A stretch of DNA of 64,000 nucleotides from a plasmid. Of the stretch, positions 2,323 to 15,651 are shown in pieces. The stretch lies in the sequence record NZ_KX443399.1. One strand, 5' to 3'. The notes beneath the pieces were generated by a model. It was given only the letters and a program-made list of their open reading frames with translations, was not told where the DNA came from and did no database searches. Each line of letters opens with the position of its first letter. Within the stretch, counting starts at the first letter, position 1. The position numbers were made by a program, and so were the translations under genes.

Positions 2323-2364
2323 GGTCGTCTCCTCTCTCGGGTGGGACGTGTCATGTGTGCTGGG

Positions 2365-2643
2365 TCAGGCCGCGTTTTCGTCGATCCAGGGTTCGTCGTC
2401 GCGGTCCTCGACGTAGTCGCCGCCGGGCGGGTCGTCGTAGTGGCCCCGCAGCGCGGCCCGCGCCTTCTCGGATGCGGCCGCCAGGTTCTCGTCCCGGGCG
2501 TGCTTCCAGTCCTCCCAGTGCCAACCCGCGCCCGCGTCGATCACGAACTCGGTCGCGTCGATCGGCTCGCCGCCGAGGAACGCCTCGATACGGGCAGGAC
2601 CGTCCGGGTCGCGGACGACGATGATTTCCAGTTCAGGGGTCAA
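2365..2643 (-). CDS. hypothetical acidic protein (92 aa)
   Basis: TTG start with GAGAGGAG RBS; protein-like composition. Confidence 0.55.
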   Translation of the reverse strand: MTPELEIIVVRDPDGPARIEAFLGGEPIDATEFVIDAGAGWHWEDWKHARDENLAAASEKARAALRGHYDDPPGGDYVEDRDDEPWIDENAA

Positions 2644-2675
2644 TCCGTGCTCCTCTCGATCGGTGGGGTCGGTGG

Positions 2676-3005
2676 TCAGCTCGCGGCCTTCAGCTCCTCG
2701 CGGTAGTAGCGGCTCGAGCGCCAGATCACCTGGCGGAAGTCGACGCCGAGGGCGTCGGCCAGGTGCCGGAGGTCGCCGACGAGGTCGGTGATCGCGGTTT
2801 CGAAGTCGTCGGTCTCGGTGCCGCAGCCCTTCGCGTACGGGGCCAGGGCGGAAACCAGGCTCATTGCCCGTACGGCGCGCGATTCCGCCGGATCGGCCAC
2901 GTCGTCCGGGGCGGGCAGATCGACGGTCTGGGAGGCGTTCAGGGCGATCAGGTCCGCGATCGTGGAGACGGCGGCGAGCTTGGCGGCGTAGGTGGTGTCG
3001 GTCAT
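2676..3005 (-). CDS. hypothetical protein (109 aa)
   Basis: ATG with GAGAGGAACC RBS. Confidence 0.6.
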   Translation of the reverse strand: MTDTTYAAKLAAVSTIADLIALNASQTVDLPAPDDVADPAESRAVRAMSLVSALAPYAKGCGTETDDFETAITDLVGDLRHLADALGVDFRQVIWRSSRYYREELKAAS

Positions 3006-3077
3006 TCGGTGGTTCCTCTCGTCAGGTGGTGGTCGGTAGGGGCCGGGCCGCCGGGGTGGGCGGCCCGGCCCGGGCGG

Positions 3078-3395
3078 TCAGTTCTTCGTAACCGTGTAGC
3101 CGAGGGCGTCGGCGAGCATGTGCATCAGTTCCTCACCGTCGGGCCGCTCGGCGTGGTGCATCCGGGTGCGGACCGCGTCGCATTCCTGCGGCTTCTCGCA
3201 CTGGCACTCGGAGTTGATGACCTCGTCGTCGAGCTCGAGCGAGGACCCGAAGCTGGCCGGGTCGATGACCCACTTGTCGGTGTCGGCGAGGTCGCGCATC
3301 AGGTAGACGCGCACCGCGCCCTCGACGTAGTGGCTGCCGCGCTCGACGGCATGGTCGGACGGGTGGACGAACGCGGGGGCGGTCAGAGTCGACAT
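3078..3395 (-). CDS. hypothetical Cys-containing protein (105 aa)
   Basis: ATG with AGAGAGAAGGAACC RBS; CQCEKPQEC motif. Confidence 0.6.
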   Translation of the reverse strand: MSTLTAPAFVHPSDHAVERGSHYVEGAVRVYLMRDLADTDKWVIDPASFGSSLELDDEVINSECQCEKPQECDAVRTRMHHAERPDGEELMHMLADALGYTVTKN

Positions 3396-3469
3396 GAGGT
3401 TCCTTCTCTCTGCGTGTTTCGCCGGTGGGGAGTTGGTGGCCCCGCCCTTGTGGGGCGGGGCCGTCGGGC

Positions 3470-3616
3470 CTACATGTAGGCGACCTCGTCGTCGGTCAGC
3501 TGGCGACCGGCGGTCAGTTCCACCAGTTCACGCTTGGCCGCGACGAACTCGTCGTGGTCGTCGCCGCCGATGGCCGCCTGGTAGCGCTCGCGGGCCTGCT
3601 CGATTTCCTTGGACAT
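3470..3616 (-). CDS. small hypothetical protein (48 aa), first gene of minus-strand operon
   Basis: ATG with AAGGGGGACA RBS directly downstream of conserved promoter; below track cutoff. Confidence 0.5.
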   Translation of the reverse strand: MSKEIEQARERYQAAIGGDDHDEFVAAKRELVELTAGRQLTDDEVAYM

Positions 3617-3644
3617 GTTGTCCCCCTTTCGTCGGCACTCCTTA

Positions 3645-3675
3645 ACCTTACAGGTATCACTTGTAATGTTGCAAC
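3645..3675 (-). promoter_or_regulatory. Conserved promoter copy 1: -35 TTGCAA, 18-nt conserved spacer (CATTACAAG...CCTG), -10 TAAGGT (TANNNT)
   Basis: GTTGCAACATTACAAG block shared with copies at 7684-7714 and 13895-13926, each ~35-45 nt upstream of a minus-strand operon start. Confidence 0.5.
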
Positions 3676-3796
3676 TCGGGAGGTTGCCGGTGTCGCCCGG
3701 CGAGCCTTCACCTTTCGCGCAGCTCCCCGACGGACCTGGCCGGCACTTGCGCCGGCCCCTCGCCGGGACGTGTCATCTGTACAGGTCAGGGCGCAA

Positions 3797-3830
3797 AAAG
3801 GCCCCCGCGCCCATGTGGGGCGCGGGGGCG
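3797..3830. terminator. GC-rich hairpin (GGCCCCCGCGCCC/GGGCGCGGGGGC) following a 25-bp motif copy; bidirectional terminator candidate
   Basis: perfect 12-13 bp stem between convergent/serial minus-strand genes. Confidence 0.5.
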
Positions 3831-3860
3831 GATGGCCGGGAACGGCCTACGCGAGAACGG

Positions 3861-4340
3861 TCACGACCCGAACAGCGAGGCCGAGCCGAACGGCGACGAC
3901 GGCGCGGACACGCTGACGAAAGTCGGCGCGGTGGTGGCGGACTGGCTCCAGGCCATCTCAGTACCCCAGACGCCGACGTGCAGCCTCCGGCATCCCCACT
4001 CGACCTGGTAGTCGCCGTCTGCCACGTTTCGGATCTGAAGCTGGCTGACTCCAGGCGTGAGCGTCACGGGCACGAACTCGCGGTTCACGAACCCGACCGA
4101 GTACAGCAACGACACCTTGTCGACGTCCTCGATGGTCGAGCCAGGTTCCACAAGGAATGCGCCACATTCGATGTCGCCACCGGCGTTGTTGGTGACCGCC
4201 AGCGTGACGGTGCTGCCCTTGGCAGTGGCGACGACACTGACGTCTTCCGGTGCCGCCCCGGCGGTACCCGCAGACAGCAACGCCAGAGGCGCTGCGGCCG
4301 CCACAGCCGCAAGCGCCGAACGAACCATGATTCGAGTCAT
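3861..4340 (-). CDS. secreted protein with N-terminal signal peptide (159 aa)
   Basis: MTRIMVRSALAAVAAAAPLALLSAGTAGA signal; flanked by motif+hairpin modules. Confidence 0.7.
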   Translation of the reverse strand: MTRIMVRSALAAVAAAAPLALLSAGTAGAAPEDVSVVATAKGSTVTLAVTNNAGGDIECGAFLVEPGSTIEDVDKVSLLYSVGFVNREFVPVTLTPGVSQLQIRNVADGDYQVEWGCRRLHVGVWGTEMAWSQSATTAPTFVSVSAPSSPFGSASLFGS

Positions 4341-4443
4341 CGGGCAAGGATGCCACTCACACGCCGGTCACCTGCCGAAACTCCCTGGCCATTGCGCCGG
4401 CCCCTCGCCGGGACGTGTCATCTGTGCAGGTCAGGGCATGAAT

Positions 4444-4478
4444 GCGGCCCCTGCGCGGGGGAGGTGCGCAGGGGCCGC
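4444..4478. terminator. GC-rich hairpin (GCGGCCCCTGCGC/GCGCAGGGGCCGC) adjacent to motif copy
   Basis: 13-bp stem downstream of minus gene ending 4498. Confidence 0.5.
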
Positions 4479-4497
4479 GGGCTTCAGTGCCAGGCCG

Positions 4498-4767
4498 TCA
4501 GGCGGTCGGGTCGAACTTCACGTGGACGACGGTTTCCGTATCGGCGGCACGCAGGCATCGGTCCAGCGCGTCACGCAGGGCGGCTGCGCGTTCGGGCGTG
4601 AGCTCGAGGGTGGGTTCATCGCCGTACCAGGGACTCTCGGGGTCAGTGTGGAGACCGAAAGCAATCTGCACTTTCCGGCCCCGCCCCAGCCCGGTGCGGT
4701 CACTGCGGCTGAGCGCACGGACGTCGGCGCGGTCGTCGAACGTCTCACCGTCGACGGTGACGGCCAT
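4498..4767 (-). CDS. hypothetical protein (89 aa)
   Basis: protein-like C-terminal segment of track ORF 4498-5844; internal ATG at 4767 just after stop of upstream XRE-like frame. Confidence 0.45.
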   Translation of the reverse strand: MAVTVDGETFDDRADVRALSRSDRTGLGRGRKVQIAFGLHTDPESPWYGDEPTLELTPERAAALRDALDRCLRAADTETVVHVKFDPTA

Positions 4768-4800
4768 GTCGACGGATTCGGCGTGCACGATCCTGCGGGT

Positions 4801-5266
4801 CACCGGAGGGAATCCTGCCCGGTCACGGCGTGGACTGCCGCCGGTTCGAACGACAGGATGGCCAACCCCTTGATCCCGTGTGTCGGCCGCTTCTCGTGGT
4901 GCCGGGGCTCGGCGTCGGGGTGGGTGAGGGTGCGCACCCGCACGCCCAGCAGCCGCGCCAGGGCCACGGTCTGCTCCCAGCTCGGATAGAGGCTGCCCGC
5001 CTCCCAGCGGTCGACGGCGGGCTCCTGCGCTCCGCACGCGATGTCGACGGACGGTCCGACGTGGTGGCCCGCGTCGAGCAGGCCGGTGGTACCAGGGGAC
5101 GAGCTTTCCCGCCTTCCACAGCTCGTGCTCGTCGTCGTCCGGCTCGGCGAAGGGCTGCGCGTCGAAGTCGGTCGAGAACGCCCGCAGGCGGTCGCGTTCG
5201 GCGTCCGACGCCGATGCCACCGGCTGCCCCATGACCGGGTCCGGGGTCGCGGGTCTGCGGCGCAGG
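4801..5266 (-). pseudogene. XRE-family HTH gene with apparent frameshift (N-terminal in one frame, HTH ...VDRWEAGSLYPSWEQTVALARLLGV in the -1/+2 frame)
   Basis: HTH_3-like sequence only readable in a frame different from the GTG/RBS-initiated N-terminus; junction near 5085-5095 (..KLVPW / GTTGLLDAGHH..). Confidence 0.35.
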
Positions 5267-5309
5267 AACTTGAACACGGGCACTCCTCTCAGGTGGTTGC
5301 GGGCGCGCG

Positions 5310-5747
5310 CTACGCGCTGCGGCGGGCGTGGGCCTGCACAGCGGCTTCGCGCAGGACCCAGGTGTCGCCGACGCGGGTAGCGGGCAGCTTCTTGGTGTTG
5401 ATGGCCTTCAGGACGCCCTGGCGGCTCACACCGAGCGTGGTGGCCGCTTCGGTGACGGAGACGAGCGGGGGCAGCTCGATCGCGTCGGTGATGCGGTCGT
5501 AGTCGTCGGTGGTGAGCACGCGCAGGGACAGCAGCGTGAACGGGTAGCGGTCGAGGATGGCCAGGGCGGTGGTGTTGGCCTGGCGGACGGATTCGGCGGG
5601 CAGGGTGAACACGACCTCGGTGCGGCCGAGTTCGGAGCGTCCGACCGAGCCGGAGTGGTCGGCGATGGGCTCCATGAGCTGGTCGACGGTCTGCTCGTCG
5701 AACGCGACGTCGAGTTCTGCGGCGACGTTGTAGGACTGTGCGGTCAC
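5310..5747 (-). CDS. DNA-binding protein with C-terminal HTH (excisionase/MerR-like), 145 aa
   Basis: ...VSVTEAATTLGVSRQGVLKAINTKKLPATRVGDTWVL; GTG with GAAAGGACCGAAGAG RBS. Confidence 0.6.
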   Translation of the reverse strand: MTAQSYNVAAELDVAFDEQTVDQLMEPIADHSGSVGRSELGRTEVVFTLPAESVRQANTTALAILDRYPFTLLSLRVLTTDDYDRITDAIELPPLVSVTEAATTLGVSRQGVLKAINTKKLPATRVGDTWVLREAAVQAHARRSA

Positions 5748-5848
5748 TTCTCTTCGGTCCTTTCTGCGTTTCGTGGTGAGGTGCGCGGTTTGGTTGGATG
5801 AGTCCGGGCCGGGGGTGATTCCTGCACCCCCGGCCCTTTCTCATGCGT

Positions 5849-6085
5849 TCAGTGCCGTGGTGGCCACTGGAACCCGGTCTGGCGCTTGATCTGCGCCAGG
5901 GCGTTCTTGAAGGCTCGCCGGTCGCTGGCCGTTTTCGAGAACGTGGTGATCACTTTCCCGTCCTTGCGGACGATCGGGTGACCCGCCGATGTAGCGCCGA
6001 TCTCGAATCCGGCCTTCTCGAGTGCCTTCAGGACTTCCCGGGTGTCCCGGTCGATTCCCTTGAACTTCTGCGGCAATCCTCGCAC
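5849..6085 (-). CDS. HicA-like (YcfA family) putative mRNA-interferase toxin, 78 aa
   Basis: VLKALEKAGFEIGATSAGHPIVRKDGKVITTFSKTASDRRAFKNALAQIKRQTG resembles HicA consensus (..aLek.Gw...GSHh.f.hp.k.g.vtvP....dl..gtlksIlkqAGl). Confidence 0.5.
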   Translation of the reverse strand: MRGLPQKFKGIDRDTREVLKALEKAGFEIGATSAGHPIVRKDGKVITTFSKTASDRRAFKNALAQIKRQTGFQWPPRH

Positions 6086-6095
6086 CTCTCTGTTT

Positions 6096-6136
6096 AGTTG
6101 ACAACCTGATCATAGCTTGCAGGTTGTTGATTGGCA
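6096..6136 (-). promoter_or_regulatory. Putative promoter (-35 TTGCCA / 17 nt / -10 TATGAT) overlapped by inverted repeat CAACAACCTG...CAGGTTGTCAAC (operator candidate) upstream of hicA-like gene
   Basis: read on minus strand; IR arms bracket the -10. Confidence 0.4.
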
Positions 6137-6277
6137 ACCATTGACGCGAAGAGCAGCCGCGACCTGGGATTTCTGGGGGCCGGCGCAGCGCCGGCGGTCG
6201 CGCGCGGGAGGCCGCCGGACAGCACGAAGGGGGCTCCCCTCGCCAGGTGGAGCCCCCTTCGGATGGCGCGGTGGCCG

Positions 6278-6823
6278 CTACAGGCGGCCCGTGACCGCGC
6301 GGGCGTACTCGCGGGCGATCGGGTGGTCGACGTTCGCCCCGCCGCCGATGTAGGCGGCGGCGATCGTCTCGGGGTCGGTGGGCTTGCCTGCGGCGGTGAG
6401 GCGGTCGACGAGGTCGCAGTCGGCGCCCACGAGGGCGACGACTGCGTCGCCGATGTCGTGCGGGGATGCGGTGCCGCTGAGGTCCGCGTCGACGAGGAAC
6501 GCGGCGGCCGTCTGCGGGGTCAGCTGCGCGGGCCCGGCCTGGCCAGCGGGACCGACTGCGGCGGCGTCGAAGCCGGATTCGGCATCGAGCTGGGCGGCGA
6601 TGAATGCCGGGCTGATCTGCGCGGCCGGGCACAGCAGCGGGGCCGCGTGCACCCACGGGGCGAAGGCGACGGGCACGCGGTCGAGCGCGCGGTCGAGCGC
6701 GCGGTCGAGCGCGCGGCCGGGGGTGTCGGCAGCAGCGGTGGCCGGGGCGGCGAGCAGCGCGGCGGCTGCGGCTCCTGCGGTGGCCGTGGCGAGCGCGGCC
6801 CGGCGGGCGGTGGTCGAGAACAT
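6278..6823 (-). CDS. secreted lytic transglycosylase (SLT domain), contains RALDRALDRALD tandem repeat
   Basis: signal peptide; ...AQLDAESGFDAAAVGPAGQAGPAQLTPQTAAAF SLT motif; GAAAGGAT RBS. Confidence 0.8.
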   Translation of the reverse strand: MFSTTARRAALATATAGAAAAALLAAPATAAADTPGRALDRALDRALDRVPVAFAPWVHAAPLLCPAAQISPAFIAAQLDAESGFDAAAVGPAGQAGPAQLTPQTAAAFLVDADLSGTASPHDIGDAVVALVGADCDLVDRLTAAGKPTDPETIAAAYIGGGANVDHPIAREYARAVTGRL

Positions 6824-6897
6824 GCGGATCCTTTCGGTGGGCGATCAACCAGCGTCGCCGGTGCCGGGGTTCCGGCACCAGCGGGTGGTCGGCGCTT

Positions 6898-7377
6898 CTA
6901 CACGCGGAAGTTGTGGACGCGAACGCGCTCGGGGGCACCGTCGGGGCCGCCGAAGCCCCGCGCCCGCACCGCCGTGCGGGCCTCGGCCGGGACGGCGGCC
7001 TCGTGGCCGCTGGCGGCGTAGCGGTGTTCGGTATCGAGCGCGTACAGGCCCATCTCGTAGTCGTAGGCGACCGGGTGCAGGTACCAGCTGATTCCCTGCG
7101 GGGTGCCGAGCCAGCCCTTGACGTGGCGCGTGCGGCTGGTGCCGTCGCGCTCGACGACGGTGACCGGGGTGGCCCACTCCACCGAGACCAGCGCGTAGAG
7201 CGGTGCGCCGATCACGCCGGTCGCGGCGGCCGCGCTGTGCGCGCCGGCGAAGGGCTGCACGAGCGCGCCCCGCTCGGGGTGACGCGGGAAGCCGTGGACG
7301 TAGCCGACGACGAGCGCGGTGGCCCCGTCGATCTCGGTGGCGAATCCGGTGGGGAGCACGGTGGCGGCGAAAGTCAT
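6898..7377 (-). CDS. hypothetical protein (159 aa)
   Basis: ATG with AGAGGAGGT RBS. Confidence 0.7.
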   Translation of the reverse strand: MTFAATVLPTGFATEIDGATALVVGYVHGFPRHPERGALVQPFAGAHSAAAATGVIGAPLYALVSVEWATPVTVVERDGTSRTRHVKGWLGTPQGISWYLHPVAYDYEMGLYALDTEHRYAASGHEAAVPAEARTAVRARGFGGPDGAPERVRVHNFRV

Positions 7378-7425
7378 GGTGACCTCCTCTGTCGGGGTGG
7401 ATGTTTCAGGCGTCAGACGGGCCGG

Positions 7426-7635
7426 TCAGGCGGCAGCAGCGGCCAGCAGGTGACCCGGAATCGCGGTGATGTCGACGGCATCGACGCCCTCGAGCGTGCG
7501 GCCGTCGGCCAGCGTCACGTCGGCGGTCATCCCGCTGTCGTTCGTGGCGATGCCGGAGATTTCGACGATGTCACCGATGATCGACTCACCGGCGAGGTTG
7601 AGGGTAACGAGCTGTGCGGCAGAGGTATTCAGCAT
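7426..7635 (-). CDS. small hypothetical protein (69 aa)
   Basis: internal ATG of track ORF with GAAGGAGT RBS, ~40 nt downstream of conserved promoter copy 2. Confidence 0.55.
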   Translation of the reverse strand: MLNTSAAQLVTLNLAGESIIGDIVEISGIATNDSGMTADVTLADGRTLEGVDAVDITAIPGHLLAAAAA

Positions 7636-7683
7636 TTCCGTACTCCTTCGTTGCGGTGTTTCCGACAAGACGAACGTTACAGG

Positions 7684-7714
7684 TAGTGCTTGTAATGTTG
7701 CAACCTGGGAATCA
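7684..7714 (-). promoter_or_regulatory. Conserved promoter copy 2: -35 TTGCAA / 18 nt / -10 TAACGT
   Basis: same GTTGCAACATTACAAG block as copies 1 and 3. Confidence 0.5.
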
Positions 7715-7737
7715 CGGCACGGGAGGCCAACTACGCG

Positions 7738-7888
7738 CCGGGACGTGTCATCTGCGCAGGTCGCACACGGTTTCGGGATGTGTTGGCGGAGACGAAAATT
7801 GCCGAGCAACGAGAGCGTGTCTCGATGCTCGGCAATGACCGATCAGGCGGGCCGGCTACCGGCCGGGACGTGTCATCTGCGCAGGTAG
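7738..7888. repeat. ~150-bp composite element copy A: 25-bp motif - imperfect long hairpin (ATTGCCGAGCA...TGCTCGGCAAT) - 25-bp motif
   Basis: near-identical to 8549-8702; the two copies flank lipoprotein gene 7899-8477. Confidence 0.8.
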
Positions 7889-7898
7889 AAGCGTGTTT

Positions 7899-8477
7899 CT
7901 AGGGCCACTCAGGGTTGGTCCAGTAGGGCGGGATCTCGCTGGCCAGGCCCTCGGCAGTCCTGGTGCCGTTGCTGCTCTGGTTGCAGGGCCCGGACCAGCC
8001 GACGCGCACAGTCGGGCCGTCGGCGTAGTGGAAGGTCGTCCACACGAGCGTCTCCGGGTCACCGATGGACGGCCCTCCGCATCGGCGTGGATTCGCCGGA
8101 CTCGCGCCTGCATTGAACGCGGCGACGACGGCGGCCAGGTCCGCGCCGTCGATACGCCCCGACGCCGCGAGCGGCGGCAGGGGCGGCGTCTGTTCTCCGC
8201 CGGGCTTGTCGTAGCGGCACACCTCGGCGAACAGCGGTGTGTCCGGAACCATCGCCTCGGCGGTGCCGGGACGCGCGAGCCCGAACTCCCATGACGGCCC
8301 GGCCGAGCAATCGACTTCGGTTGTCTCGGTTTCGAACATGGTGACGTCAACGCTCTTCGTCGGTTGGTCGTCGTCGTTGTCGCTTGCGCACCCGGTCAGT
8401 GCCAGCGCGATTCCCGCGCCCGCGCACAGCGCCGCTGCTGTCAGGACGCGGCCGGATGCTCTCGTTGTTTCCCCCAT
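7899..8477 (-). CDS. lipoprotein (192 aa)
   Basis: signal + lipobox ALTGC. Confidence 0.7.
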   Translation of the reverse strand: MGETTRASGRVLTAAALCAGAGIALALTGCASDNDDDQPTKSVDVTMFETETTEVDCSAGPSWEFGLARPGTAEAMVPDTPLFAEVCRYDKPGGEQTPPLPPLAASGRIDGADLAAVVAAFNAGASPANPRRCGGPSIGDPETLVWTTFHYADGPTVRVGWSGPCNQSSNGTRTAEGLASEIPPYWTNPEWP

Positions 8478-8548
8478 GCCCCGCAGACTACGAGCCGCCG
8501 CGTTGTCGTCGGCAGAAGATCGAGGCCGACCCGCGTGCGACCCGTCGG

Positions 8549-8702
8549 CCGGGACGTGTCATCTGACCTGGTCGCGCAGGGTTTCGGGATGTGTTGGCGG
8601 AGACGAAAATTGCCGAGCAGCGAGAGTGTGTCTCGATGCTCGGCAATGGGCGATCAGGTGGGGCCGGCTACCGGCCGGGACGTGTCATGTGCACAGGTCA
8701 GG
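8549..8702. repeat. ~150-bp composite element copy B (motif-hairpin-motif)
   Basis: few mismatches vs 7738-7888. Confidence 0.8.
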
Positions 8703-9021
8703 ACTTCTTTTTTCGGCCCATCATGGAGGCGATGAGCGCGAAGCCGAACCAACTGATGGCCGTGCCGCCGATCAGTCCTCCTAGTCCCCAGGTGAGAACG
8801 TCGCCCGGCCATTCCAGTCCGGATACCGAGGTTCCGGGGGCCTCGGTGGGGAACCAGGGGAAGTAGGCCAGTTTCACCGAGCCGGCGATCAGGGCGGCAC
8901 CGGCCCCGGCCAGCCACGCGAGTCCCCCGACGATGGCGAGCACCATTCCGATCAGTTCGAGGGGTTCGACCGCTGCGCGCGGTGCCGGTCGAGGAGCTGC
9001 GACGGTTTGTGCGTCGTTCAT
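8698..9021 (-). CDS. small membrane protein (107 aa)
   Basis: two hydrophobic helices; GAAAGGACT RBS; stop codon supplied by the GGTCAG end of a motif copy. Confidence 0.7.
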   Translation of the reverse strand: MNDAQTVAAPRPAPRAAVEPLELIGMVLAIVGGLAWLAGAGAALIAGSVKLAYFPWFPTEAPGTSVSGLEWPGDVLTWGLGGLIGGTAISWFGFALIASMMGRKKKS

Positions 9022-9107
9022 GGGAGTCCTTTCGGGGTGGGCGTCGTCGGGGCGATCCGATCCGGGACGTGTCGTCTCCGCTTTTCAGGGCATGTTTTCG
9101 GCGATGC

Positions 9108-10301
9108 TCATGCGTGGTTGTCGTCGGGGCCGGCGGGCAGTTCATGCAGCGCGGTGAGGTCGCCGGTGAGGATCTGGAGTCGGGTAGTGATGGCGGCGTG
9201 GAGGTCTCGGGCGTCGGCGGTGAGCCGGTCGAGGTGGCGCACGGTCAGCTCGTCGCCGCCGGTCTGGCGGACAAGGTTCCCGAGGTGGCTGCTGGCGGTG
9301 AGGGATCGTTCGACGGCCTGGAGGGCGAGGTAGTCGGTGTTCAGGGCAGACAGCTCGGCCGCGTACCGGTAGAGGGCGGCGACGCGGCGGGTCAGTGACG
9401 CGGTCACGGTGTCCAGGATCTGCTCGTTTCCGGCGCGCTGGATGCGTGCGCGGAGCGCGGCGTCGCCGTCGCCGTCCGGGGTGGGTCCGAGTGCGTCACG
9501 GGCGCGGCTGATCTCGGTCGCGTGCGCGGTGATCTGCGCGGCTTCGGCGTCGGGGTCGAGCTGGATGCGGTGCACGCTCAGGTCGTCCGACGCCCAGGCC
9601 GGGCAGGCGGTGATCTGGGCGGCGAGCGCGGCGGCGATCTGCGCGAGCTGGTGCTCGGGGGTGCCGGGTTCGGGGCCGGGCTCGGCGACGGTGGCGTGTT
9701 CGAGGGCCCAGTAGTCGGGGCCGCTCAATGCGAGGTCGGCGCGGTTCTCGGCGCGTTCCTCCGCGACTGCGGCGAACAGAAGCGCCCAGGCCAGGGCCGC
9801 GATCGCGGCGATGGTCGACGGCGAAGGTTCCAGCGGGCCGAACAGCATGGCCGCGGCGAGCCCGACCGCGACGACTGCGAGCAGGTTCCGCAGGGTGGCG
9901 AGTCGGCCGCTGGCGTGGAAGGCGTCGACGAACCTGTCGAGCATGGAGTCCGTCCGGCCGCTGGTGTCCTCGGTGTGGGGCAGCTGGGCACGTAGCGCGT
10001 CGCGCTGCCGCCTGGTGAGCGCCGAGCCGGTCAGCGCGTCGGAGGTCGATGAATCGGGGGCGGCGATCGCACTGGCGTTGTGGGCGTGCCGGGGCACCGG
10101 CAGGCCCTGTGCTTCGCGGCGGACGAGTTTGGCCGCCAGCGCCTTCGGCAGGCGGGTGCGGTCGATCGTCGATTGCTGCGGCAGCGGGACCGGGTCGATC
10201 GGGGCGGCGAGCAGTTCGTTGATGCGGGTCTCGGACGCGGTGACGCGGTCGTCGGCACCGGTCAGGGCCGCTTGTGCGTCAGTGAGCCAGTCGCGGGCCA
10301 C
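9108..10301 (-). CDS. membrane protein (~397 aa), coiled-coil/TM
   Basis: GTG with GGAG RBS; TM segments LLAVVAVGLAAAMLFGPL.../IAAIAALAWALLFAAVA; upstream part of track ORF is Arg-rich junk. Confidence 0.6.
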   Translation of the reverse strand: MARDWLTDAQAALTGADDRVTASETRINELLAAPIDPVPLPQQSTIDRTRLPKALAAKLVRREAQGLPVPRHAHNASAIAAPDSSTSDALTGSALTRRQRDALRAQLPHTEDTSGRTDSMLDRFVDAFHASGRLATLRNLLAVVAVGLAAAMLFGPLEPSPSTIAAIAALAWALLFAAVAEERAENRADLALSGPDYWALEHATVAEPGPEPGTPEHQLAQIAAALAAQITACPAWASDDLSVHRIQLDPDAEAAQITAHATEISRARDALGPTPDGDGDAALRARIQRAGNEQILDTVTASLTRRVAALYRYAAELSALNTDYLALQAVERSLTASSHLGNLVRQTGGDELTVRHLDRLTADARDLHAAITTRLQILTGDLTALHELPAGPDDNHA

Positions 10302-10303
10302 TG

Positions 10304-10504
10304 CTACGGCTCCAGGCCGACAAGGAACGGAACACCGTAGACAGCCGCGAGGAGCAGCACCATCCCGGTCAGGAGCGTGAGCCAGAAACCCCGCCGGTCC
10401 TTCACCCGATCCTCGAACGTTGAGACGAGGAGCCAGATCAATCCCCCCTCGTGCGCCTGCGTCTGAGCGCTGGTGTTCTGTCGTTCGATGTTCTGCTGGT
10501 CCAT
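10304..10504 (-). CDS. small membrane protein (66 aa)
   Basis: GAGGGGGGA RBS; translationally coupled to downstream gene. Confidence 0.6.
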   Translation of the reverse strand: MDQQNIERQNTSAQTQAHEGGLIWLLVSTFEDRVKDRRGFWLTLLTGMVLLLAAVYGVPFLVGLEP

Positions 10505-10540
10505 GAGTCCCCCCTCGGGTCCGGTGTTCGGTGTAGATGG

Positions 10541-11128
10541 TCATGCGGGCCGCGTCCATTCGAGGGCCGCGAGGTCGGGGCGGCCGTCGGCGAGGAGCGC
10601 GAGCAGCGCGCGGGTGGCGCGGACATCAGCGAGGGCGCGGTGGCCGCCGTCGAGGCGGAGACGGCCATCGGTGCCGAGTCCGAGAGCCTGGCAGCGGCGG
10701 GCCATCACGCAGTGCCAGCGCGCGGGGTCGAACAGGTGCGCCGGGTCGATGCCCGCGCGGCGGCAGTCGTGCAGGACCCGGTCGCGGTCGAATGCCGCGT
10801 TGTATGCGAGCACCTTCCGCGTCGCGGTGATCGCGGCGAGGCGGGCGTGGACCTGCGGCCAACTCGGTGCCCCGGCTAGGTCAGCGGCGGTGAGCCCGTG
10901 CACGGCGTGCGCGTCGGGGTGGATCGGTGCGCCGTCGGGGTCGACAAGGGTGTCGAGCAGGACCTCACCGGTAGCGGCGTCGATGACTGCGACCTCGATG
11001 ATCGAGCCGTCGAGGCCGGTGGTTTCGGTGTCGAGGATGCAGGCCACACCCGGCGCGAGCATCGCGTTCGCCCACTGGCGGGGCGTCAGGGTGAACGTGG
11101 GCACTGCATCCTCCTCGGTCCCGAACAT
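10541..11128 (-). CDS. DEDD-family 3'-5' exonuclease (DnaQ/epsilon-like)
   Basis: Exo I motif ILDTETTGLD; Exo III HRALADVRAT. Confidence 0.85.
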   Translation of the reverse strand: MFGTEEDAVPTFTLTPRQWANAMLAPGVACILDTETTGLDGSIIEVAVIDAATGEVLLDTLVDPDGAPIHPDAHAVHGLTAADLAGAPSWPQVHARLAAITATRKVLAYNAAFDRDRVLHDCRRAGIDPAHLFDPARWHCVMARRCQALGLGTDGRLRLDGGHRALADVRATRALLALLADGRPDLAALEWTRPA

Positions 11129-11134
11129 GGTCCC

Positions 11135-11425
11135 CTACCCCTCCGACACCGTGGCTGCCTGTTCGGCGAGGTGGTAGCCCTTGCCGGACGGGGTGGTGTG
11201 CAAGCTGTCGACCTTGATGCTGACCACGCGGCCCGGCGCGGTGACCTCACCGGTCTCCTGGTTGTGCGCGGAGATGACGGTGCAGATCGCGGCGGTGCCG
11301 AGCGCGCCGGCGTCCTCGAGGCCGTCGACGCGCAGGGTGCGGCGCACGGTGCGGGCGGGGTTGTCGAGCCAGAGCTGGCCGACGCGGATCTCGTCGCCGT
11401 GGCGGTTGGTGGTGGTGTCGGACAT
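11135..11425 (-). CDS. hypothetical protein (96 aa)
   Basis: ATG with GAGGAGAA RBS; upstream part of track ORF 11135-12112 is junk. Confidence 0.7.
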   Translation of the reverse strand: MSDTTTNRHGDEIRVGQLWLDNPARTVRRTLRVDGLEDAGALGTAAICTVISAHNQETGEVTAPGRVVSIKVDSLHTTPSGKGYHLAEQAATVSEG

Positions 11426-11502
11426 GGGTTCTCCTCGGATCGGTTCGGGTAGGTGGGGCCAGGGCGCCCGGGGTGGGCGCTCCTGGCAGCTGTGGCGGGT
11501 TG

Positions 11503-12189
11503 TCAGGCCGGGGTGGGCCTCTTGTGCTTGCGGAGGTTGCCGATCGACGTCACGGACGCGACGCCGCCGCACGCGCCGCACCAGGCGTAGCGGCCTCGGG
11601 TCTTCCACTCGCGCATGCGCTTGTGGCTGCACATGGTCGGGTCCTCTTCCTTGGCCGGCCCGACGGTCCACTCGACCGGGGCGCTGGGGAAGCAGTGGGT
11701 GCACAGCAGCGGGCCGTGCGCGGTGACGGCGTCGGCTTCGGTGTCGCCGGACAGGTCCGGGAGCCATCCGAGCCGGGTGGACGGGCGCAGGGTGTGGCAG
11801 TAGGGGTTGGCGTGGATGTGGCCACGGTCGACGAGGTAGTAGCGGGGCCACGGGTTCGCGCGGTAGGGGGCTTCGGCGGTCTCGATCTCGGCGGTGATCA
11901 CGGCCCGCTCGTCGCGGTACTGGGAGACCCGGTCGATCAGGTAGGCGTAGTCCCGCAGGCGGGGAGCCGGATTCGGGGCGTCGAGCAGGCCCACCAGGCG
12001 CTCGTACGCGTCGATGTCGGTCAGCGCCCACCGGCTGCGGGTGACCTGGCGGTCGTCGATGGCGTGGTGGATCGAGCGGTAGGTGGCGTCGAGCCGGTCG
12101 ACGATCTCCCAACGGCGCGCGTGCAGGTCGGCGAGCGCGCGGTCGACGGTCTTCGGGTCGATCGCGGTGGCGGTCGTGGCGGTGGTCAT
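11503..12189 (-). CDS. hypothetical Cys-containing protein (228 aa)
   Basis: GAGAGGA RBS; CHTL...CTHC...CSHK...CGAC Cys pairs. Confidence 0.75.
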   Translation of the reverse strand: MTTATTATAIDPKTVDRALADLHARRWEIVDRLDATYRSIHHAIDDRQVTRSRWALTDIDAYERLVGLLDAPNPAPRLRDYAYLIDRVSQYRDERAVITAEIETAEAPYRANPWPRYYLVDRGHIHANPYCHTLRPSTRLGWLPDLSGDTEADAVTAHGPLLCTHCFPSAPVEWTVGPAKEEDPTMCSHKRMREWKTRGRYAWCGACGGVASVTSIGNLRKHKRPTPA

Positions 12190-12281
12190 GGCGCGGTCCT
12201 CTCAGGGAAGTCCGGATGTCGGTGTCGCTGTGGGGCGCTCCCCCGGGCGCCCTCGGTGGGCGCCCGGGAGGTGCGCGGCGG

Positions 12282-13319
12282 TCAGGCCGCGTCGGTCTCG
12301 CTGCTGGTCTCGGGCTCGGTGGTGCGCTGGCCGTCGACGATGCGGACGGGGCGGGCGTCGGCGTCGCGCAGGCCGCGGATCTCGGCGTAGGCGATGCGGT
12401 CGGTCCAGCTGCCGCCGACGATCGAACGGATGCTGACGGTCTTCGCGTTGACCTTCATCACCTCGTTCCACTGGCCGACGTAGAACACGTGGTCGCCCTT
12501 GGCGAGGACGTCGGCGCTGTAGGGGGTGGCCTTGCCGTCGGCGATCTGCTGGGCGCGTACGCCCTGCCAGTAGGCCAGTTCCTCGGCGGTGTGCTCGATC
12601 TCGGCCAGCACCCGCTCGCGGTACTCGCCTCCGGCCGGGGCGTGGTCCTCGGTGTACTTCTCGCCGGTCTGCTTGTTCGTGTGCAGGGTGCGCGAGTAGC
12701 CGTCGCGGGTGCGCTCGAGGCGCTTGAGCTCGGCGGCGAGCTTGTCGATGCGGCGGGCCACGGTCACCGGCGCGTAGCGGTGGTCGGTGGTCTTGGCGGC
12801 GGCGTCGGCGCGGCCCCGGGCGGTGGCGGCCTCACGCTCGGACTGCACGGCCTTGCCGAGTGCGTTCCAGGACTTCTCGACGGCGCGGCGGTGCCGGCCC
12901 TCGCTGTGGTGGCCGACCTTGATCGGTTCGCCGCCCTCGGGCAGCGCGGCGTGCGCGGCCTTCTCGGCGGCCCAGGCGGATTCGGCGGCCCCGGCCTTGC
13001 GGTCGGCCTTCGCGTCGAGGGCGTCGACGCGGCCCTGCTGGCGGGCGATCTTGTCGGCCTCGACCTCGGCGACCTCGCGGTAGGTGTCGTCGATCTCGAT
13101 CTCGACGGTGAACCCGGCGGCGCGCAGCGCGGCTGCGGTCGCGTTGATCTGGGCGAGCTTCGCGCGGCGGTCCCGCGTGTTCTGGATGTACCAGGAGCCG
13201 AGATTGCGGGACCAGCGCCAGCGCTGGGCCTTCAGGATCTTCCCGGAGCCGTCGCCGCGCGCGGTTCCGTCGATCAGGGTGCCGTCGGCGTGGGTATGGG
13301 TGATGGTCAGTGCGGACAT
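12282..13319 (-). CDS. DUF3560-like protein (345 aa)
   Basis: N-terminal ...ADGTLIDGTARGDGSGKILKAQRWRWSRNLGSWY typical of DUF3560 proteins of actinobacterial plasmids; GAAAGGTAAGGA RBS. Confidence 0.8.
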   Translation of the reverse strand: MSALTITHTHADGTLIDGTARGDGSGKILKAQRWRWSRNLGSWYIQNTRDRRAKLAQINATAAALRAAGFTVEIEIDDTYREVAEVEADKIARQQGRVDALDAKADRKAGAAESAWAAEKAAHAALPEGGEPIKVGHHSEGRHRRAVEKSWNALGKAVQSEREAATARGRADAAAKTTDHRYAPVTVARRIDKLAAELKRLERTRDGYSRTLHTNKQTGEKYTEDHAPAGGEYRERVLAEIEHTAEELAYWQGVRAQQIADGKATPYSADVLAKGDHVFYVGQWNEVMKVNAKTVSIRSIVGGSWTDRIAYAEIRGLRDADARPVRIVDGQRTTEPETSSETDAA

Positions 13320-13367
13320 GCGCGGTCCTTACCTTTCGTCAGATGTGCAGGTCAGGGGCGGCGCGGG

Positions 13368-13859
13368 TCAGCGGATGAACCGCCAGGCCGAGCGCGCGAC
13401 GCGTGCCCCTGGGACGGTGCGGGAGGCGAGATTTCCGGCGGCCTTCGCGGCGCGCTTGCCGTAGACCACGCCGCGCGAGGGGCCAGCAGCCTTGGCCGGG
13501 GCCTTAGCCTCGCGGGCCGGGCGCTCGATGCGAGCGGCCCGGTTCTCACGGCGAGCCTCGCGGTACTCGGCACCGCCCACGGGGTCGATGTAGCGCAGCG
13601 GCGTGTGGACCACGACGTTCTCCGCCAGACGCGAGCGCCAGAATCGGCGCTGGTAGGCGAACAGGAAGTGACCGGCCAGCCAGATCACCGCACCGATGAC
13701 CAGCCACGGCGCGCGGACCGCAATCGGGTCACCCATGACGATGAACGCGAGCGAGCTGACGACCATCAGTGCGCCACCGAAGCGGGCGATCGGTGCGCCG
13801 ATCTTCCAGACAAGCAGACCCGCGAGGGCGAGAGCGGCAAAAACGGCGATGATCGACAT
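13368..13859 (-). CDS. membrane protein (163 aa), first gene of long minus-strand operon
   Basis: GGAAGGGGA RBS immediately downstream of conserved promoter copy 3. Confidence 0.7.
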   Translation of the reverse strand: MSIIAVFAALALAGLLVWKIGAPIARFGGALMVVSSLAFIVMGDPIAVRAPWLVIGAVIWLAGHFLFAYQRRFWRSRLAENVVVHTPLRYIDPVGGAEYREARRENRAARIERPAREAKAPAKAAGPSRGVVYGKRAAKAAGNLASRTVPGARVARSAWRFIR

Positions 13860-13894
13860 TCGGTTTCCCCTTCCGTGGCGCAACTTCCGAGAAC

Positions 13895-13926
13895 TACATT
13901 ACAGGCCCTGCTTGTAATGTTGCAAC
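13895..13926 (-). promoter_or_regulatory. Conserved promoter copy 3: -35 TTGCAA / 18 nt / -10 TAATGT; divergent with HTH gene at 14053
   Basis: GTTGCAACATTACAAG block. Confidence 0.5.
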
Positions 13927-14052
13927 CCGAGAGGGTTCCGTGTGTTGCGGCACGCGTTTCCTACGAAGCAAGCCCCACATGTAAAGTTCTCGGCATTCAG
14001 CGACCGACGCGGCGACGGCGGCGCCAACGACGAAAGGAAGGTGACACGAGAG

Positions 14053-14310
14053 ATGGCGAACCCGAACCGCATCACTGCCCAGCAGGTCATCGAACTGATC
14101 AAGGAACTGACCGGCGACGAGATCAAGGTGAACACCTTCTACGGCTACGTCAGCCGTGGCCAAGCACCGAAGGCCGTGGAGAAGATCGGCAACACGTCGC
14201 TGTGGAAGAAGAGCGAGATCACCGAGTGGGCCCTCAACCGGCCAGGCCGCGGCGCCCGCACCGACCTACCCAAGACGCGCCGACGCACCAAAGACACTGA
14301 TTCGGAGTGA
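14053..14310 (+). CDS. small HTH DNA-binding protein (excisionase/AlpA/MerR-like), 85 aa
   Basis: GAAAGGAAGG RBS; ITAQQVIELIKELTGDEIKVNTFYGYVSRGQAPKAVEKIGNTSLWKKSEITEWALNR. Confidence 0.65.
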   Translation: MANPNRITAQQVIELIKELTGDEIKVNTFYGYVSRGQAPKAVEKIGNTSLWKKSEITEWALNRPGRGARTDLPKTRRRTKDTDSE

Positions 14311-15014
14311 CCACGGATTCCGGCGGCCACACCGATGCGGTTGTGGTGGCATGCGGTCTTGTGAGCGGTGCATTCACCGTGGCAGCTGGCCTTGCGGCGG
14401 TTAACTCGCTCGGCACCCTTGCGATCGGCGCTTTCGTCGTTGCCGCGGTCGGACTGGCCTACGCCACCCATCGAGCACGCCCCACCCGCTTTTGGAAGTG
14501 GTGCGGCTATAGCTCGGTGGTCGTGTTGTCGCTGGCTGCGCTCACGGTGACAGGCACCCGCGCACTCCACACAAAAGATGAATCTCAGACGATGCTGTCG
14601 GCTCGGGAGACGTCGAAGCCCGCCGCAACGTCTACAGAGGCCACACCGATCACCACGACGGCGACCACTCCTGCACCGACGACTGCACTGCCCGCACCTG
14701 CCGGTCCAGTCCTTCCACCGGAGGAGAAGGCGATCTACGAGTCCAGGGCAAGCGAGTTCTTCGGCGGGGCACTCATTCTCGCGAATCAGAACACGTACTC
14801 AAACTACCTAGTTCTGACGATCACCACAGACGCGCGATCCTGCACCTCGCGCTTTCTCGACGTAGGCGAGCGGGTCATGGTTGCGGGGAATACTGCTGGC
14901 GACCGCTACTTTCGGCTGACCGTTCTGGAAACGATCGACGACACTTCTGCCACGATCCGGGCAGAGGATCTACCGCCGCAGGACTGGCCCACGTATCTCC
15001 CTAGCTGCCCCTGA
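14307..15014 (+). CDS. membrane protein with Thr/Pro-rich linker (235 aa)
   Basis: GTG overlapping upstream stop; two N-terminal TM helices. Confidence 0.55.
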   Translation: MTTDSGGHTDAVVVACGLVSGAFTVAAGLAAVNSLGTLAIGAFVVAAVGLAYATHRARPTRFWKWCGYSSVVVLSLAALTVTGTRALHTKDESQTMLSARETSKPAATSTEATPITTTATTPAPTTALPAPAGPVLPPEEKAIYESRASEFFGGALILANQNTYSNYLVLTITTDARSCTSRFLDVGERVMVAGNTAGDRYFRLTVLETIDDTSATIRAEDLPPQDWPTYLPSCP

Positions 15015-15162
15015 TAGGGCACGCCGGAGCCAACTTCGTGAGATGTGTCGCCTTCCCAGTTCACACGGCATAATGCAGACAGCACAGCGCCCCCGCTCCG
15101 AATCCCGGAGCGGGGGCGCTTGTCGTTCACGCCGTTCATGCGGGACGTGTCATCTGCGCAGT

Positions 15163-15516
15163 TCAGAGCGGGTGAACGCCCGAGTACAGCTGGGATGTTC
15201 GGACAATCGCGTCCCACAAACCAGAGTGCGCCCACATCGCGAGGGCCACGGCACCGCCCATCGAGAAGATCGCCGTCAGCTCGGCGGCTTTCGTCGTTCG
15301 CGTCTCGGCGCGATCCTGGCAGCGGCCGCGCCATGCGGCGATGCCGGCACCTATCGCCCCGAGCGCCAGGGCGCCTGCGGTGGCGGGCCATCTGCGGTCG
15401 GGGTCACCGGTCACGGCCAGTGCCGCCAGGACCACGAGTGCGACGACGCTGATCGCGCGGAGCTGGACGGGTTCGGCCGCAGCGGCATTCGTCTGCGTCG
15501 GGGTCTGCTCGGTCAT
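15163..15516 (-). CDS. small membrane protein (117 aa)
   Basis: AGGAGGAGAT RBS; motif copy 5 nt upstream of RBS. Confidence 0.6.
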   Translation of the reverse strand: MTEQTPTQTNAAAAEPVQLRAISVVALVVLAALAVTGDPDRRWPATAGALALGAIGAGIAAWRGRCQDRAETRTTKAAELTAIFSMGGAVALAMWAHSGLWDAIVRTSQLYSGVHPL

Positions 15517-15651
15517 ATCTCCTCCTGGGTGGGACGTGTCATCTGCGCTGGTCAATGGCCGTTTTCGATAGTTCGACGACGACGCCCCCGCTGCGGTGTT
15601 CCGGAGCGGGGGCGTCGGTCGAGATCCGGCGGGACGTGTCGTTTGTGCTGG

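Follow-up and report, generated by a model that had tools for sequence, protein, structure and literature searches.

Putative sigma-A promoters with an embedded inverted repeat, and a candidate regulator, on the left arm of a Prescottella equi-type linear plasmid

The 64,000-nt stretch of plasmid record NZ_KX443399.1 analyzed here (referred to as the window) contains three near-identical 31-nt blocks, each lying a short distance 5' of the gene that opens a minus-strand cluster. An original prediction, made from the letters alone, had described these blocks as strong sigma-A-type promoters that share an operator. The reading put forward here, probable rather than secure, is that they are sigma-A promoters into which the operator of a plasmid-encoded regulator is built, and that for this regulator HTH85, the 85-aa product of a gene divergent from the third cluster, is the likeliest candidate. 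The components of this reading differ in strength: it is very probable that each block is an active housekeeping promoter of the sigma-A (sigma-70) type, likely that the embedded dyad of about 25 bp functions as an operator, plausible on balance that HTH85 is the protein binding this dyad, and only slightly favored that the bound protein represses rather than activates.

The blocks stand out by their sequence identity and by their position. The 16-mer GTTGCAACATTACAAG with which each block begins, and for which a search had been suggested, has exactly three copies in the window, all on the minus strand (3660-3675, 7689-7704 and 13911-13926); allowing up to three mismatches yields nothing beyond these copies, compared to an expectation of 0.10, and none of 100 shuffled sequences reaches three. 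The full pattern GTTGCAACATTACAAG-N5-CCTGTAANGT also has three minus-strand copies, and the pattern TTGCAACATTACAAG-N5-CCTGTAANGT matches 3645-3674, 7674-7703 and 13896-13925 with zero matches expected. The coordinates of the blocks (Table 1) agree within 1 nt with those proposed earlier for the first and third copies, whereas the second had been placed 10 nt too high (7684-7714 instead of 7674-7704). In all three copies the anatomy is as described, namely G-TTGCAA, an 18-nt spacer and then TAAGGT, TAACGT or TAATGT. The proposed operon starts are likewise borne out: each first gene has an ATG (3616, 7635 and 13859) with a good Shine-Dalgarno sequence 5-10 nt 5' of it, and orthologues agree with these starts. 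The -10 hexamers end only 28, 38 and 36 nt before the respective ATG, which places the blocks nearer to the ribosome-binding sites than the 35-45 nt that had been assumed, and transcription is predicted to start near 3638, 7666 and 13889. The position weight matrix (PWM) scores of the blocks (Table 1) can be compared with a background of no hits at or above 18 across 796 kb of shuffled sequence. Except for one short C-rich stretch (repeat family D12), the flanks around the three copies are unrelated.

Promoter character is supported by the way in which the hexamers vary. At family sites outside the window, the -35 element alternates between TTGCAA and the canonical TTGACA (six of six positions), i.e. 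between GTTGCAAC and GTTGACAC, while the -10 element is always TA(A/T)nGT, including versions such as TATAGT and TAAAGT in relatives. TANNNT is the actinobacterial form of the -10 element, and both the TTGCAA/TTGACA alternation and the retention of TAnnGT in relatives support the sigma-A-type assignment of the original prediction. The first eight bases of the block, GTTGCAAC, form a perfect palindrome, but a separate palindromic operator at this place was ruled out, as related sites carry GTTGACAC, in which the palindrome is broken and a perfect -35 element gained; since the swap creates TTGACA, the first element is read as a -35 hexamer and not as a palindromic protein site. All sites are sense-oriented relative to the downstream gene, and the distance from the -10 element to the ATG is fixed for each orthologue group across plasmids. 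It amounts to 28-29 nt for operon 1 (before the MSKEIEQAR/MENTIEQAR genes of pVAPN1572, pVAPN03-56, pNSL1 and R. ruber plas1), 35-38 nt for operon 2 (before MSNT.VAEL-type genes of pVAPN03-56, pNSL1, R. ruber, R. zopfii, SMB37, JCM 9791 and P. subtropica), exactly 36 nt for operon 3 (before MSII...-type membrane-protein genes in 10 loci) and 63-65 nt for HTH85. Hairpin terminators precede P_op1 and P_op2 and P_op3 lies in a divergent intergenic region of 193 nt, which argues that each block heads a transcription unit.

Embedded in the block is a dyad that extends from the last base of the -35 element through the entire -10 element, with the consensus ACnWT(A/G)CAA-N7-TTGTAWnGT and the window version ACATTACAAG-N5-CCTGTAAnGT. 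Block positions A7, C8, C13, A14, T24 and G25 do not vary across 45 distinct sites, G30 and T31 are present in 44 of these, and T11, A/G12, A15, T23, T26 and A27 are near-invariant, while positions 17-21 at the center are free to vary. Seven pairs are complementary about position 19 (7-31, 8-30, 11-27, 12-26, 13-25, 14-24 and 15-23). C8, T11-A15, T23-T26 and G30 lie outside the hexamer needs of RNA polymerase but are exactly what the symmetry of the dyad demands. The arms differ between lineages. P. equi has CAAG-N5-CCTG, the Cryobacterium plasmid has TACAG-N7-CTGTA, and H-CA8f has CAGCG-TGA-CGCTG in four copies; in R. fascians, one operon promoter (TACAC-N7-GTGTA) and the regulator promoter (CACAC-N7-GTGTA) carry a compensatory 15/23 change, whereas the left arm of the second operon promoter stays TACAA, so that compensatory arms are found at two of the three sites. 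These symmetry-preserving changes represent few independent events and lend moderate support to an operator; being lineage-specific and common to the sites within one plasmid, they are as expected for an operator co-evolving with a replicon-encoded protein. The earlier proposal that the conserved 18-nt spacer is a shared operator is therefore upheld with regard to the operator, but the conserved unit is the 25-bp dyad with its free center rather than the spacer. To our knowledge, the dyad does not resemble the LexA (TCGAAC-N4-GTTCGA) or PafBC/RecA-NDp boxes.

The original prediction named no regulator; HTH85 is proposed here for this role. Its AlphaFold2 model (mean predicted local distance difference test score 78, predicted template modeling score 0.64) has the order beta-alpha-alpha-beta-beta-alpha followed by a low-confidence, disordered basic tail, and it is modeled as a DNA-binding winged helix. 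The top Foldseek matches are 7lwr, BldC (6ama), HiNmlR (5d90), RdfS (8dgl), the GIsul2 excisionase (8c3t) and MerR N-domains, with a probability of 0.98 and template modeling scores to the target of 0.63-0.76 for the small-protein matches. By sequence, HTH85 matches PHROG 597 ('DNA binding protein', E 3e-13), and its best match in the Protein Data Bank is 8c3t (E 0.053); NCBIfam gave no match. Homologues with 63-75% identity occur on about 40 Rhodococcus plasmids and are better conserved than the neighboring genes. In every Nocardiaceae locus examined, the HTH85 gene adjoins a dyad-bearing promoter, and the loci fetched by HTH85 alone (pRHL1, R. fascians, pRLLBG43, H-CA8f, pROB01, PD630 plasmid 3 and the Cryobacterium plasmid) carry ACA-N9-TG(T/C) dyads that run into a TAnnGT-type hexamer beside the gene. 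The Cryobacterium plasmid, whose HTH85 homologue is 45% identical, has the site CTTGCAAcccTACAGcgtgacgCTGTAGGGT with a TTGCAA-18-TAnGGT layout as in the window, and two loci (L037 and L038) have the dyad beside an HTH85 homologue, though they have no other query gene in common with the window. Conversely, in three plasmids with weak homologues of the operon 3 genes and no HTH85 homologue in the whole record, examination of 25-32 kb did not reveal the motif.

Two further features of the HTH85 family were observed. Its tail, W..NRPGRGxRTD (encoded at 14230-14290 of the window), is invariant in homologues down to 41% identity, including gp32 of Gordonia phage Dardanus, and resembles an AT-hook with its RGR core, although modeled with low confidence; it might contact the A/T-rich dyad center that is present in most lineages. 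The homologues in Gordonia phages are annotated only as 'DNA binding protein'.

Absence of the block from homologous operons of related plasmids would have been the most direct counter-evidence to a shared promoter. Instead, it is found in front of the orthologous first genes, with an unchanged distance to the ATG, in pNSL1 (L025) and pBD2 (L026), both fetched by protein homology alone, and in R. ruber plas1, which was fetched by megablast and has a diverged version; it is also found in pVAPN1572 and pVAPN03-56. An alignment of the intergenic region between operon 3 and HTH85 from nine plasmids (A2) shows conservation only in the two Shine-Dalgarno/start regions and in two promoter-sized islands, one of which is the P_op3 block. 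A scan for the exact pattern in 185,579 species genomes (one per species) matched 21 stretches, of which 15 are Rhodococcus/Prescottella contigs with homologues of the same backbone genes (one is labeled as a proteobacterial metagenome-assembled genome yet is identical to a Rhodococcus contig) and six belong to unrelated taxa and are chance matches. A pattern scan of viral contigs gave five matches, all in contigs with a GC content of 35-40% and attributable to chance. A short-query blastn search against PLSDB proved too insensitive for a census of the motif.

Among the related plasmids, pVAPN1572 deviates from the window in several respects: its operon 3 block (L001, 10407-10437) has lost both hexamers (GCTGCAAC ... 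TGTGCTGT), the operon 2 promoter and first gene are entirely gone (L001, 4300-6200), the HTH_17 gene of this region is a 25-aa remnant, and a GntR regulator gene adjoins the 85-aa regulator gene. These differences look like decay or rewiring of the backbone in that lineage. In SMB37 (L010, 4999-5029), JCM 9791 (L020, 2193-2223) and R. phenolicus (L021, 1470-1500), the block precedes a leader of about 115 nt and then an MxxYDVEIQASTGYE gene, and the regulon therefore differs between plasmids; since this leader contains a conserved GTGTTCGGCGG word and a hairpin, the regulon in those plasmids may include a structured leader or small RNA. Short conserved words are also present in the predicted 5' leaders of operon 2 (TGTCGGAAAC, 7659-7667), operon 3 (CTCGGAAG, 13884-13890) and the ADP-ribosyltransferase gene described below (TTGGAAGC, 50625-50632), with orthologous sites in loci L003, L005, L017 and L019. 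Such words might indicate where transcription starts, or they might belong to a second control element.

The count of three copies given by the original prediction is right for the near-identical ones, but two diverged plus-strand copies had been missed, raising the total in the window to five sites, one of them at the promoter of HTH85 itself (Table 1). This fourth site has a weaker left dyad arm, coincides with the second conserved island of alignment A2, was found by a generic dyad scan and is taken as the promoter of the HTH85 gene; homologous GTTTCCACAAAGCAA-N7-ATGTAAAGT blocks precede the ATG of MANPNR... genes in R. ruber, R. zopfii and JCM 9791, and such a block is also present upstream of the regulator gene of pBD2. 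The fifth site, recovered by both the PWM scan and the generic dyad search, has six mismatches to the block, and pVAPN03-56 carries an identical copy. It sits 90 nt before the ATG of a gene for a 755-aa protein with an ADP-ribosyltransferase domain (50707-52974; Pfam ADPrib_exo_Tox, E 8e-10), and its membership in the promoter-operator set is probable but not certain. Several sites including one at the promoter of the regulator are likewise present in pNSL1, pBD2, R. ruber, R. fascians, pROB01 and Cryobacterium.

Table 1. Predicted promoter-operator sites, genes, terminators and repeats in the window.
Feature	Position	Strand	Description
P_op1	3645-3675	-	-35 TTGCAA 3674-3669; -10 TAAGGT 3650-3645; dyad ACATTACAAG/CCTGTAAGGT 3669-3645; PWM 51.3
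P_op2	7674-7704	-	-35 TTGCAA 7703-7698; -10 TAACGT 7679-7674; PWM 47.7
P_op3	13896-13926	-	-35 TTGCAA 13925-13920; -10 TAATGT 13901-13896; PWM 45.5
HTH85-gene promoter copy	13956-13987	+	GTTTCC-T-ACGAAGCAAG-CCCCA-CATGTAAAGT; -35 TTTCCT 13957-13962; 19-nt spacer; -10 TAAAGT 13982-13987
Weak fifth copy	50586-50616	+	GTTGTCACTTAGCAAGCACAGCTTGTAAGGT; TTGTCA-18-TAAGGT; arms ACTTAGCAAG/CTTGTAAGGT (P. equi-type); PWM 23.9
HTH85 gene	14053-14310	+	Predicted 85-aa winged-helix protein (MANPNRITAQQV...); divergent from operon 3; candidate operator-binding regulator
Gene cluster 1 (inferred operon)	1802-3616	-	Six small open reading frames (ORFs): 3470-3616, 3078-3395, 2676-3005, 2365-2643, 2017-2322, 1802-2020
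Gene cluster 2 (inferred operon, minimum extent)	6278-7635	-	69-aa ORF 7426-7635; 159-aa ORF 6898-7377; SLT lytic transglycosylase 6278-6823
Gene cluster 3 (inferred operon)	9108-13859	-	Membrane protein 13368-13859; DUF3560 12282-13319; 228-aa ORF 11503-12189; RNase_T-type 3'-5' exonuclease 10541-11128; 483-aa ORF 9108-10559
Separate sigma-70-like site of HicA-like gene	6137-6109	-	TTGCCA-17-TATGAT, consensus scan
Intrinsic terminator hairpin	3801-3829	-	12 G-C pairs then UUUUU; 125 nt upstream of P_op1; -31 kcal/mol, z -4.3
Terminator-like hairpin	7798-7836	-	ATTGCCGAGCA...TGCTCGGCAAT then UUUU; 93 nt upstream of P_op2; inverted repeat I1; -29 kcal/mol, z -4.6
Second repeat	~652, 1666, 2064, 2355, 3777, 4422, 7752, 7877, 8563, 8689, 9076, 15154, 15543, 15643, 50813, 53869	-	GATGACACGTCCC
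Second repeat, single plus copy	~54333	+	GATGACACGTCCC

Several points weigh against the proposed reading. In all three blocks the -35 hexamer matches only four of six positions of TTGACA and the -10 hexamer only three of six of TATAAT, which is mediocre by E. coli standards, and an E. coli-type consensus scan of the first 20 kb (threshold of at least four of six per hexamer) listed only 6137-6109 and not the three blocks; the designation of the promoters as strong is consequently unsupported. Regarding the dyad, pair 16-22 covaries, being complementary in 25 of 45 sites compared to 14.5 expected, but this signal comes largely from a single lineage, P. equi (G16/C22). The pattern of the genome scan fixed 18 positions, so that the invariance of those columns in the loci obtained by it is given by construction, and the case therefore rests on loci fetched independently of the motif. 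As for HTH85, its score against Pfam HTH_17 (E 0.009, 16.7 bits) is below the gathering cutoff of 27, its Foldseek E-values are weak (0.05-0.2) and it is without an evident dimerization domain, while the Xis/BldC-type proteins that are its closest folds usually bind direct repeats head-to-tail and not inverted ones. The co-occurrence of HTH85 and dyad is confounded by common plasmid ancestry within the pNSL1 group, and a Streptomyces locus with an HTH85 homologue of 40% identity (L043) has no clear dyad.

Given a real promoter and operator, the dyad could be bound by another protein, such as the 145-aa product of the HTH_17 gene at 5310-5747 (HTH145), a host factor or the product of a helix-turn-helix gene located close to the rep region, with HTH85 as a mere neighbor. 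This is considered unlikely, even though the binding by HTH85 is itself deduced from sequence, HTH145 has a clear excisionase-type helix-turn-helix (E 2e-8) with conserved counterparts of the protein in pNSL1, R. ruber, R. zopfii and elsewhere, and a third helix-turn-helix regulator is annotated in pVAPN03-56 at 33957-34388. The HTH145 gene comes after a HicA-like gene and the pair has its own sigma-70-like promoter, an arrangement that fits a toxin-antitoxin pair; pVAPN1572 keeps the P_op1 and P_op3 blocks, yet only the remnant of HTH145 is left in the 23 kb examined, and L037 and L038 have dyads beside an HTH85 homologue but no HTH145, which together disfavor HTH145 as the regulator. A host factor is difficult to reconcile with arms that vary with the plasmid and not with the host, as pNSL1-type arms are common to R. 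ruber, R. zopfii and R. erythropolis, and with a genome scan in which the pattern appeared in plasmid-backbone contexts only, apart from chance matches. The first genes of clusters 1 and 2 (48 and 69 aa) were also considered as regulators and rejected, their products being acidic, without family matches and without DNA-binding features in their sequence. Quite unlikely, in turn, are plain sigma-A promoters without any dedicated regulator, in which the spacer is kept by descent from duplications or by a preference of RNA polymerase for a discriminator or an extended -10-like contact. Hexamers and spacing suffice for a promoter, TTGTA immediately 5' of the -10 element could partly serve as a TG extension, and the three copies of the window are as near-identical as recent duplicates. 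Nevertheless, the TG is one base off the register of an extended -10 element, the copies have unrelated flanks, and the same non-hexamer positions are maintained in plasmids with a protein identity of only 40-75%, in which 17-21 drift; the conserved non-hexamer bases make a dyad, and its arms have changed in a compensatory manner in R. fascians and H-CA8f.

Positive control is regarded as very unlikely, whether by a MerR-like activator that remodels the spacer or by a Q/AlpA-type factor that loads between the -35 and -10 elements and carries RNA polymerase through internal terminators. By its fold matches, HTH85 resembles a MerR-type winged helix, and the spacers of 18-19 nt are slightly long. 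MerR-type promoters have spacers of 19-20 bp, and their regulators possess a coiled coil and an effector domain, whereas the three operon promoters have 18-nt spacers and HTH85, with 85 aa, is predicted to consist of a winged helix and a disordered basic tail. Antitermination would suit the several terminator-like hairpins within the arm, and antiterminators such as AlpA of P. aeruginosa do bind an element between -35 and -10 (PMC9371919), but AlpA and Q are larger proteins with multiple helices, a single molecule of which binds an asymmetric site that is accompanied by a sigma-dependent pause element (PMC9371919), in contrast to a symmetric dyad over the -10 element and an 85-aa winged-helix candidate. 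Both types were rejected, as those of their defining features that were tested are lacking here. Finally, it is extremely improbable that the block is not a promoter but a site for partition, replication or recombination, or one end of a small mobile element. Such a role would be compatible with a dyad that is repeated on a plasmid and has a large ParA gene nearby, but in many plasmids every copy overlays -35/-10-like hexamers in sense orientation and lies at a fixed short distance before a start codon, the blocks are not flanked by repeats or target duplications, and the copies are single and dispersed, unlike clustered centromeres or iterons.

According to the preferred reading, sigma-A promoters with an embedded operator, each of the three blocks would start a minus-strand transcription unit on the telomere-proximal arm, and the dyad would be the operator for a regulator, most likely the Xis/BldC-like winged helix HTH85. 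A bound protein would mask the -10 element and most of the spacer, which makes repression the simplest outcome. It would affect at least five promoters in the window, namely P_op1, P_op2, P_op3, that of HTH85 itself and probably that of the ADP-ribosyltransferase gene, and the weaker dyad at the HTH85 promoter would provide autoregulation. In this way the arm could be controlled by one switch, for example by permitting a burst of expression upon entry into a new host before the repressor builds up. A more far-reaching possibility, which is doubtful at present, is that HTH85 and the promoter-embedded ACA-N9-TGT dyad constitute an undescribed, portable master-switch cassette of actinobacterial plasmids that gates 'establishment' genes. 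Such a cassette would be found on linear and circular Rhodococcus plasmids and one Cryobacterium plasmid, with relatives in Gordonia phages, and in it a mini-protein without a dimerization domain but with an invariant AT-hook-like tail (NRPGRGxRTD) would read a 25-bp inverted repeat on the telomere-proximal arm of conjugative invertrons of the TraB type, among them pVAPN, the ruminant virulence plasmid. Joint action with a second repeat of the same arm, GATGACACGTCCC, is conceivable.

Regulators with operators in several plasmid backbone promoters, including their own, are represented by KorA/KorB of IncP-1 plasmids and ArdK/StbA/KorA of the IncW plasmid R388. The arrangement proposed here would have in common with these networks the operators at multiple promoters, the autoregulation and a coordinated, probably transient expression after transfer; it differs by unrelated proteins and operators, by the actinobacterial host and by the linear invertron with TraB-type transfer (PMC6852188), and it is known from sequence. 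With the BldC/Xis/RdfS/AlpA-type members of the HTH_17 family, several of which regulate transcription, HTH85 shares the predicted beta-alpha-alpha-beta-beta-alpha fold, but the site is an inverted repeat inside a promoter, the invariant tail W..NRPGRGxRTD is specific to the HTH85 family and the Pfam match is sub-threshold. In Streptomyces, KorA/KorB of pIJ101 and TraR of pSN22 are small repressors whose operators overlap promoters for transfer and spread and which form divergent autoregulated pairs, KorA and TraR belonging to the GntR family. Here, a conjugative actinobacterial plasmid and a divergent gene pair are also found, but HTH85 is Xis/BldC-like, no GntR gene lies beside the regulator gene of the window (pVAPN1572 has one) and the putatively controlled genes are mostly uncharacterized. 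The TnrA/GlnR box of Firmicutes, TGTNA-N7-TNACA, is bound by small MerR-like regulators and is similar in being a 17-bp dyad with a free center of 7 nt that overlaps promoters and is read by a small MerR-type winged helix (a GlnR-DNA complex, 4r4e, is at Foldseek rank 37); the arms are TGT...ACA there and ACA...TGT here, and regulon, taxon and effector logic are unrelated. The system of mycobacteriophage L5, in which the repressor gp71 acts on the early promoter Pleft, resembles the present one in its near-identical promoter-operator units repeated on one replicon, and HTH85 homologues occur in Gordonia phages, but the L5 sites are asymmetric 13-mers and the dyad is symmetric. Phage origin of the window was ruled out, as its DNA gave no megablast match to phage DNA and the motif matches in viral contigs were limited to chance hits of low GC content.

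The type of system, an autoregulated plasmid repressor with operators in several backbone promoters, is thus well known and represents a standard promoter-operator arrangement, useful more than surprising, while this instance is apparently undescribed. The analysis adds the exact operator, two extra sites, a candidate regulator and a promoter-dyad-regulator module that appears widespread on actinobacterial plasmids. This provides a testable regulon, in which one candidate regulator would act through one 25-bp operator at five promoters, for a conserved but almost uncharacterized backbone arm that many environmental Rhodococcus linear plasmids share with pVAPN, the virulence plasmid found in P. 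equi isolates from ruminants and humans. If HTH85 is a repressor, its loss or titration should switch on the whole arm, with DUF3560, a lytic transglycosylase, an ADP-ribosyltransferase and a DnaQ-like exonuclease among its products, and this would be a clue to roles of these genes in plasmid establishment or transfer. Rhodococcus engineering might also make use of the block as a compact, regulated promoter part.

The window appears to be the telomere-proximal left arm of a Rhodococcus (Prescottella) equi-type linear plasmid of the pVAPN/pNSL1 kind. Positions 1-20,000 are 97% identical to pVAPN plasmids of Prescottella (Rhodococcus) equi across 53-59% of their length, and parts of these first 20 kb are about 80% identical to pNSL1-type linear plasmids from other Rhodococcus species. 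Positions 1 to about 230 consist of nested GC-rich palindromes with GCTGCGC/GCGCTGCGCGCC cores that can be aligned to the very termini of pNSL1, pBD2 and pVAPN03-56, which places the left telomere at or near the window start; compared to the end of pNSL1, about 50 nt are extra. The first 2,000 nt have a strong strand-composition skew (GC skew -0.24, AT skew +0.28), and the three gene clusters read toward this telomere. Both pVAPN and pNSL1 are invertron-like replicons with a common backbone and a TraB translocase for transfer (PMC6852188; PMC5434932). Promoters of the TTGCAA-block type are not mentioned in these two papers, nor is such a promoter or regulator mentioned in the R. equi plasmid papers that were read, and literature searches returned no paper on these promoters. 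A scan of positions 1-20,000 against Rfam gave a single, sub-threshold match (RAGATH-31, E 0.77).

Most genes of the three clusters have no match in the family scans. Cluster 1, delimited from the ORF lists and from GC content at third codon positions, is predicted to end at a terminator (1717-1693), and the five of its ORFs that were scanned (all but 1802-2020) gave no family match. The hairpin at 3801-3829 is predicted to mark the end of the preceding transcription unit. Synteny of cluster 3 extends to pVAPN, pNSL1, pBD2 and R. ruber. Located 3' of cluster 2 are the HicA-like gene (5849-6085) and then, also on the minus strand, the HTH145 gene. The HicA-like product scores 25.0 bits in Pfam, just under the cutoff of 27 bits, the helix-turn-helix of HTH145 is C-terminal, and a bidirectional hairpin (5806-5836) is present at this pair, inside the region 3' of P_op2. 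The two genes look like a HicAB-like toxin-antitoxin pair.

The second intergenic repeat, GATGACACGTCCC, is 25-30 nt long, unrelated to the TTGCAA block and more abundant, with a count of 14-17 compared to an expectation of 0.1 (regular expression) or 1.6 (16-mer). Its sense consensus is (T-run) gCC(C/G)TGA(C/G)CTG-nnnn-GATG(A/G)CA(C/T)GTCCC; in many cases a small GCCGG...CCGGC hairpin comes next, and sigma-70-like hexamers are lacking. Nearly all copies are gene-oriented, and many lie just 3' of a terminator, with the next start codon 15-100 nt further on. The repeat is present in pVAPN03-56, pNSL1, R. ruber and R. zopfii and was not found in the R. fascians plasmid piece. Possible roles include a promoter for another form of RNA polymerase, a stoperator-like protein site or a unit similar to mycobacterial interspersed repetitive units. 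Its antisense strand begins with GGGACG, the hexamer of the P. aeruginosa AlpA-binding element, which is probably a coincidence. A module of 115 nt occurs twice (7737-7851 and 8548-8662, 91% identical) and comprises a GATGACACGTCCC element, the ATTGCCGAGCA...TGCTCGGCAAT hairpin with its UUUU (Table 1) and a second element. This module, which has no match in Rfam, could represent a small RNA of about 75 nt or a duplicated terminator cassette.

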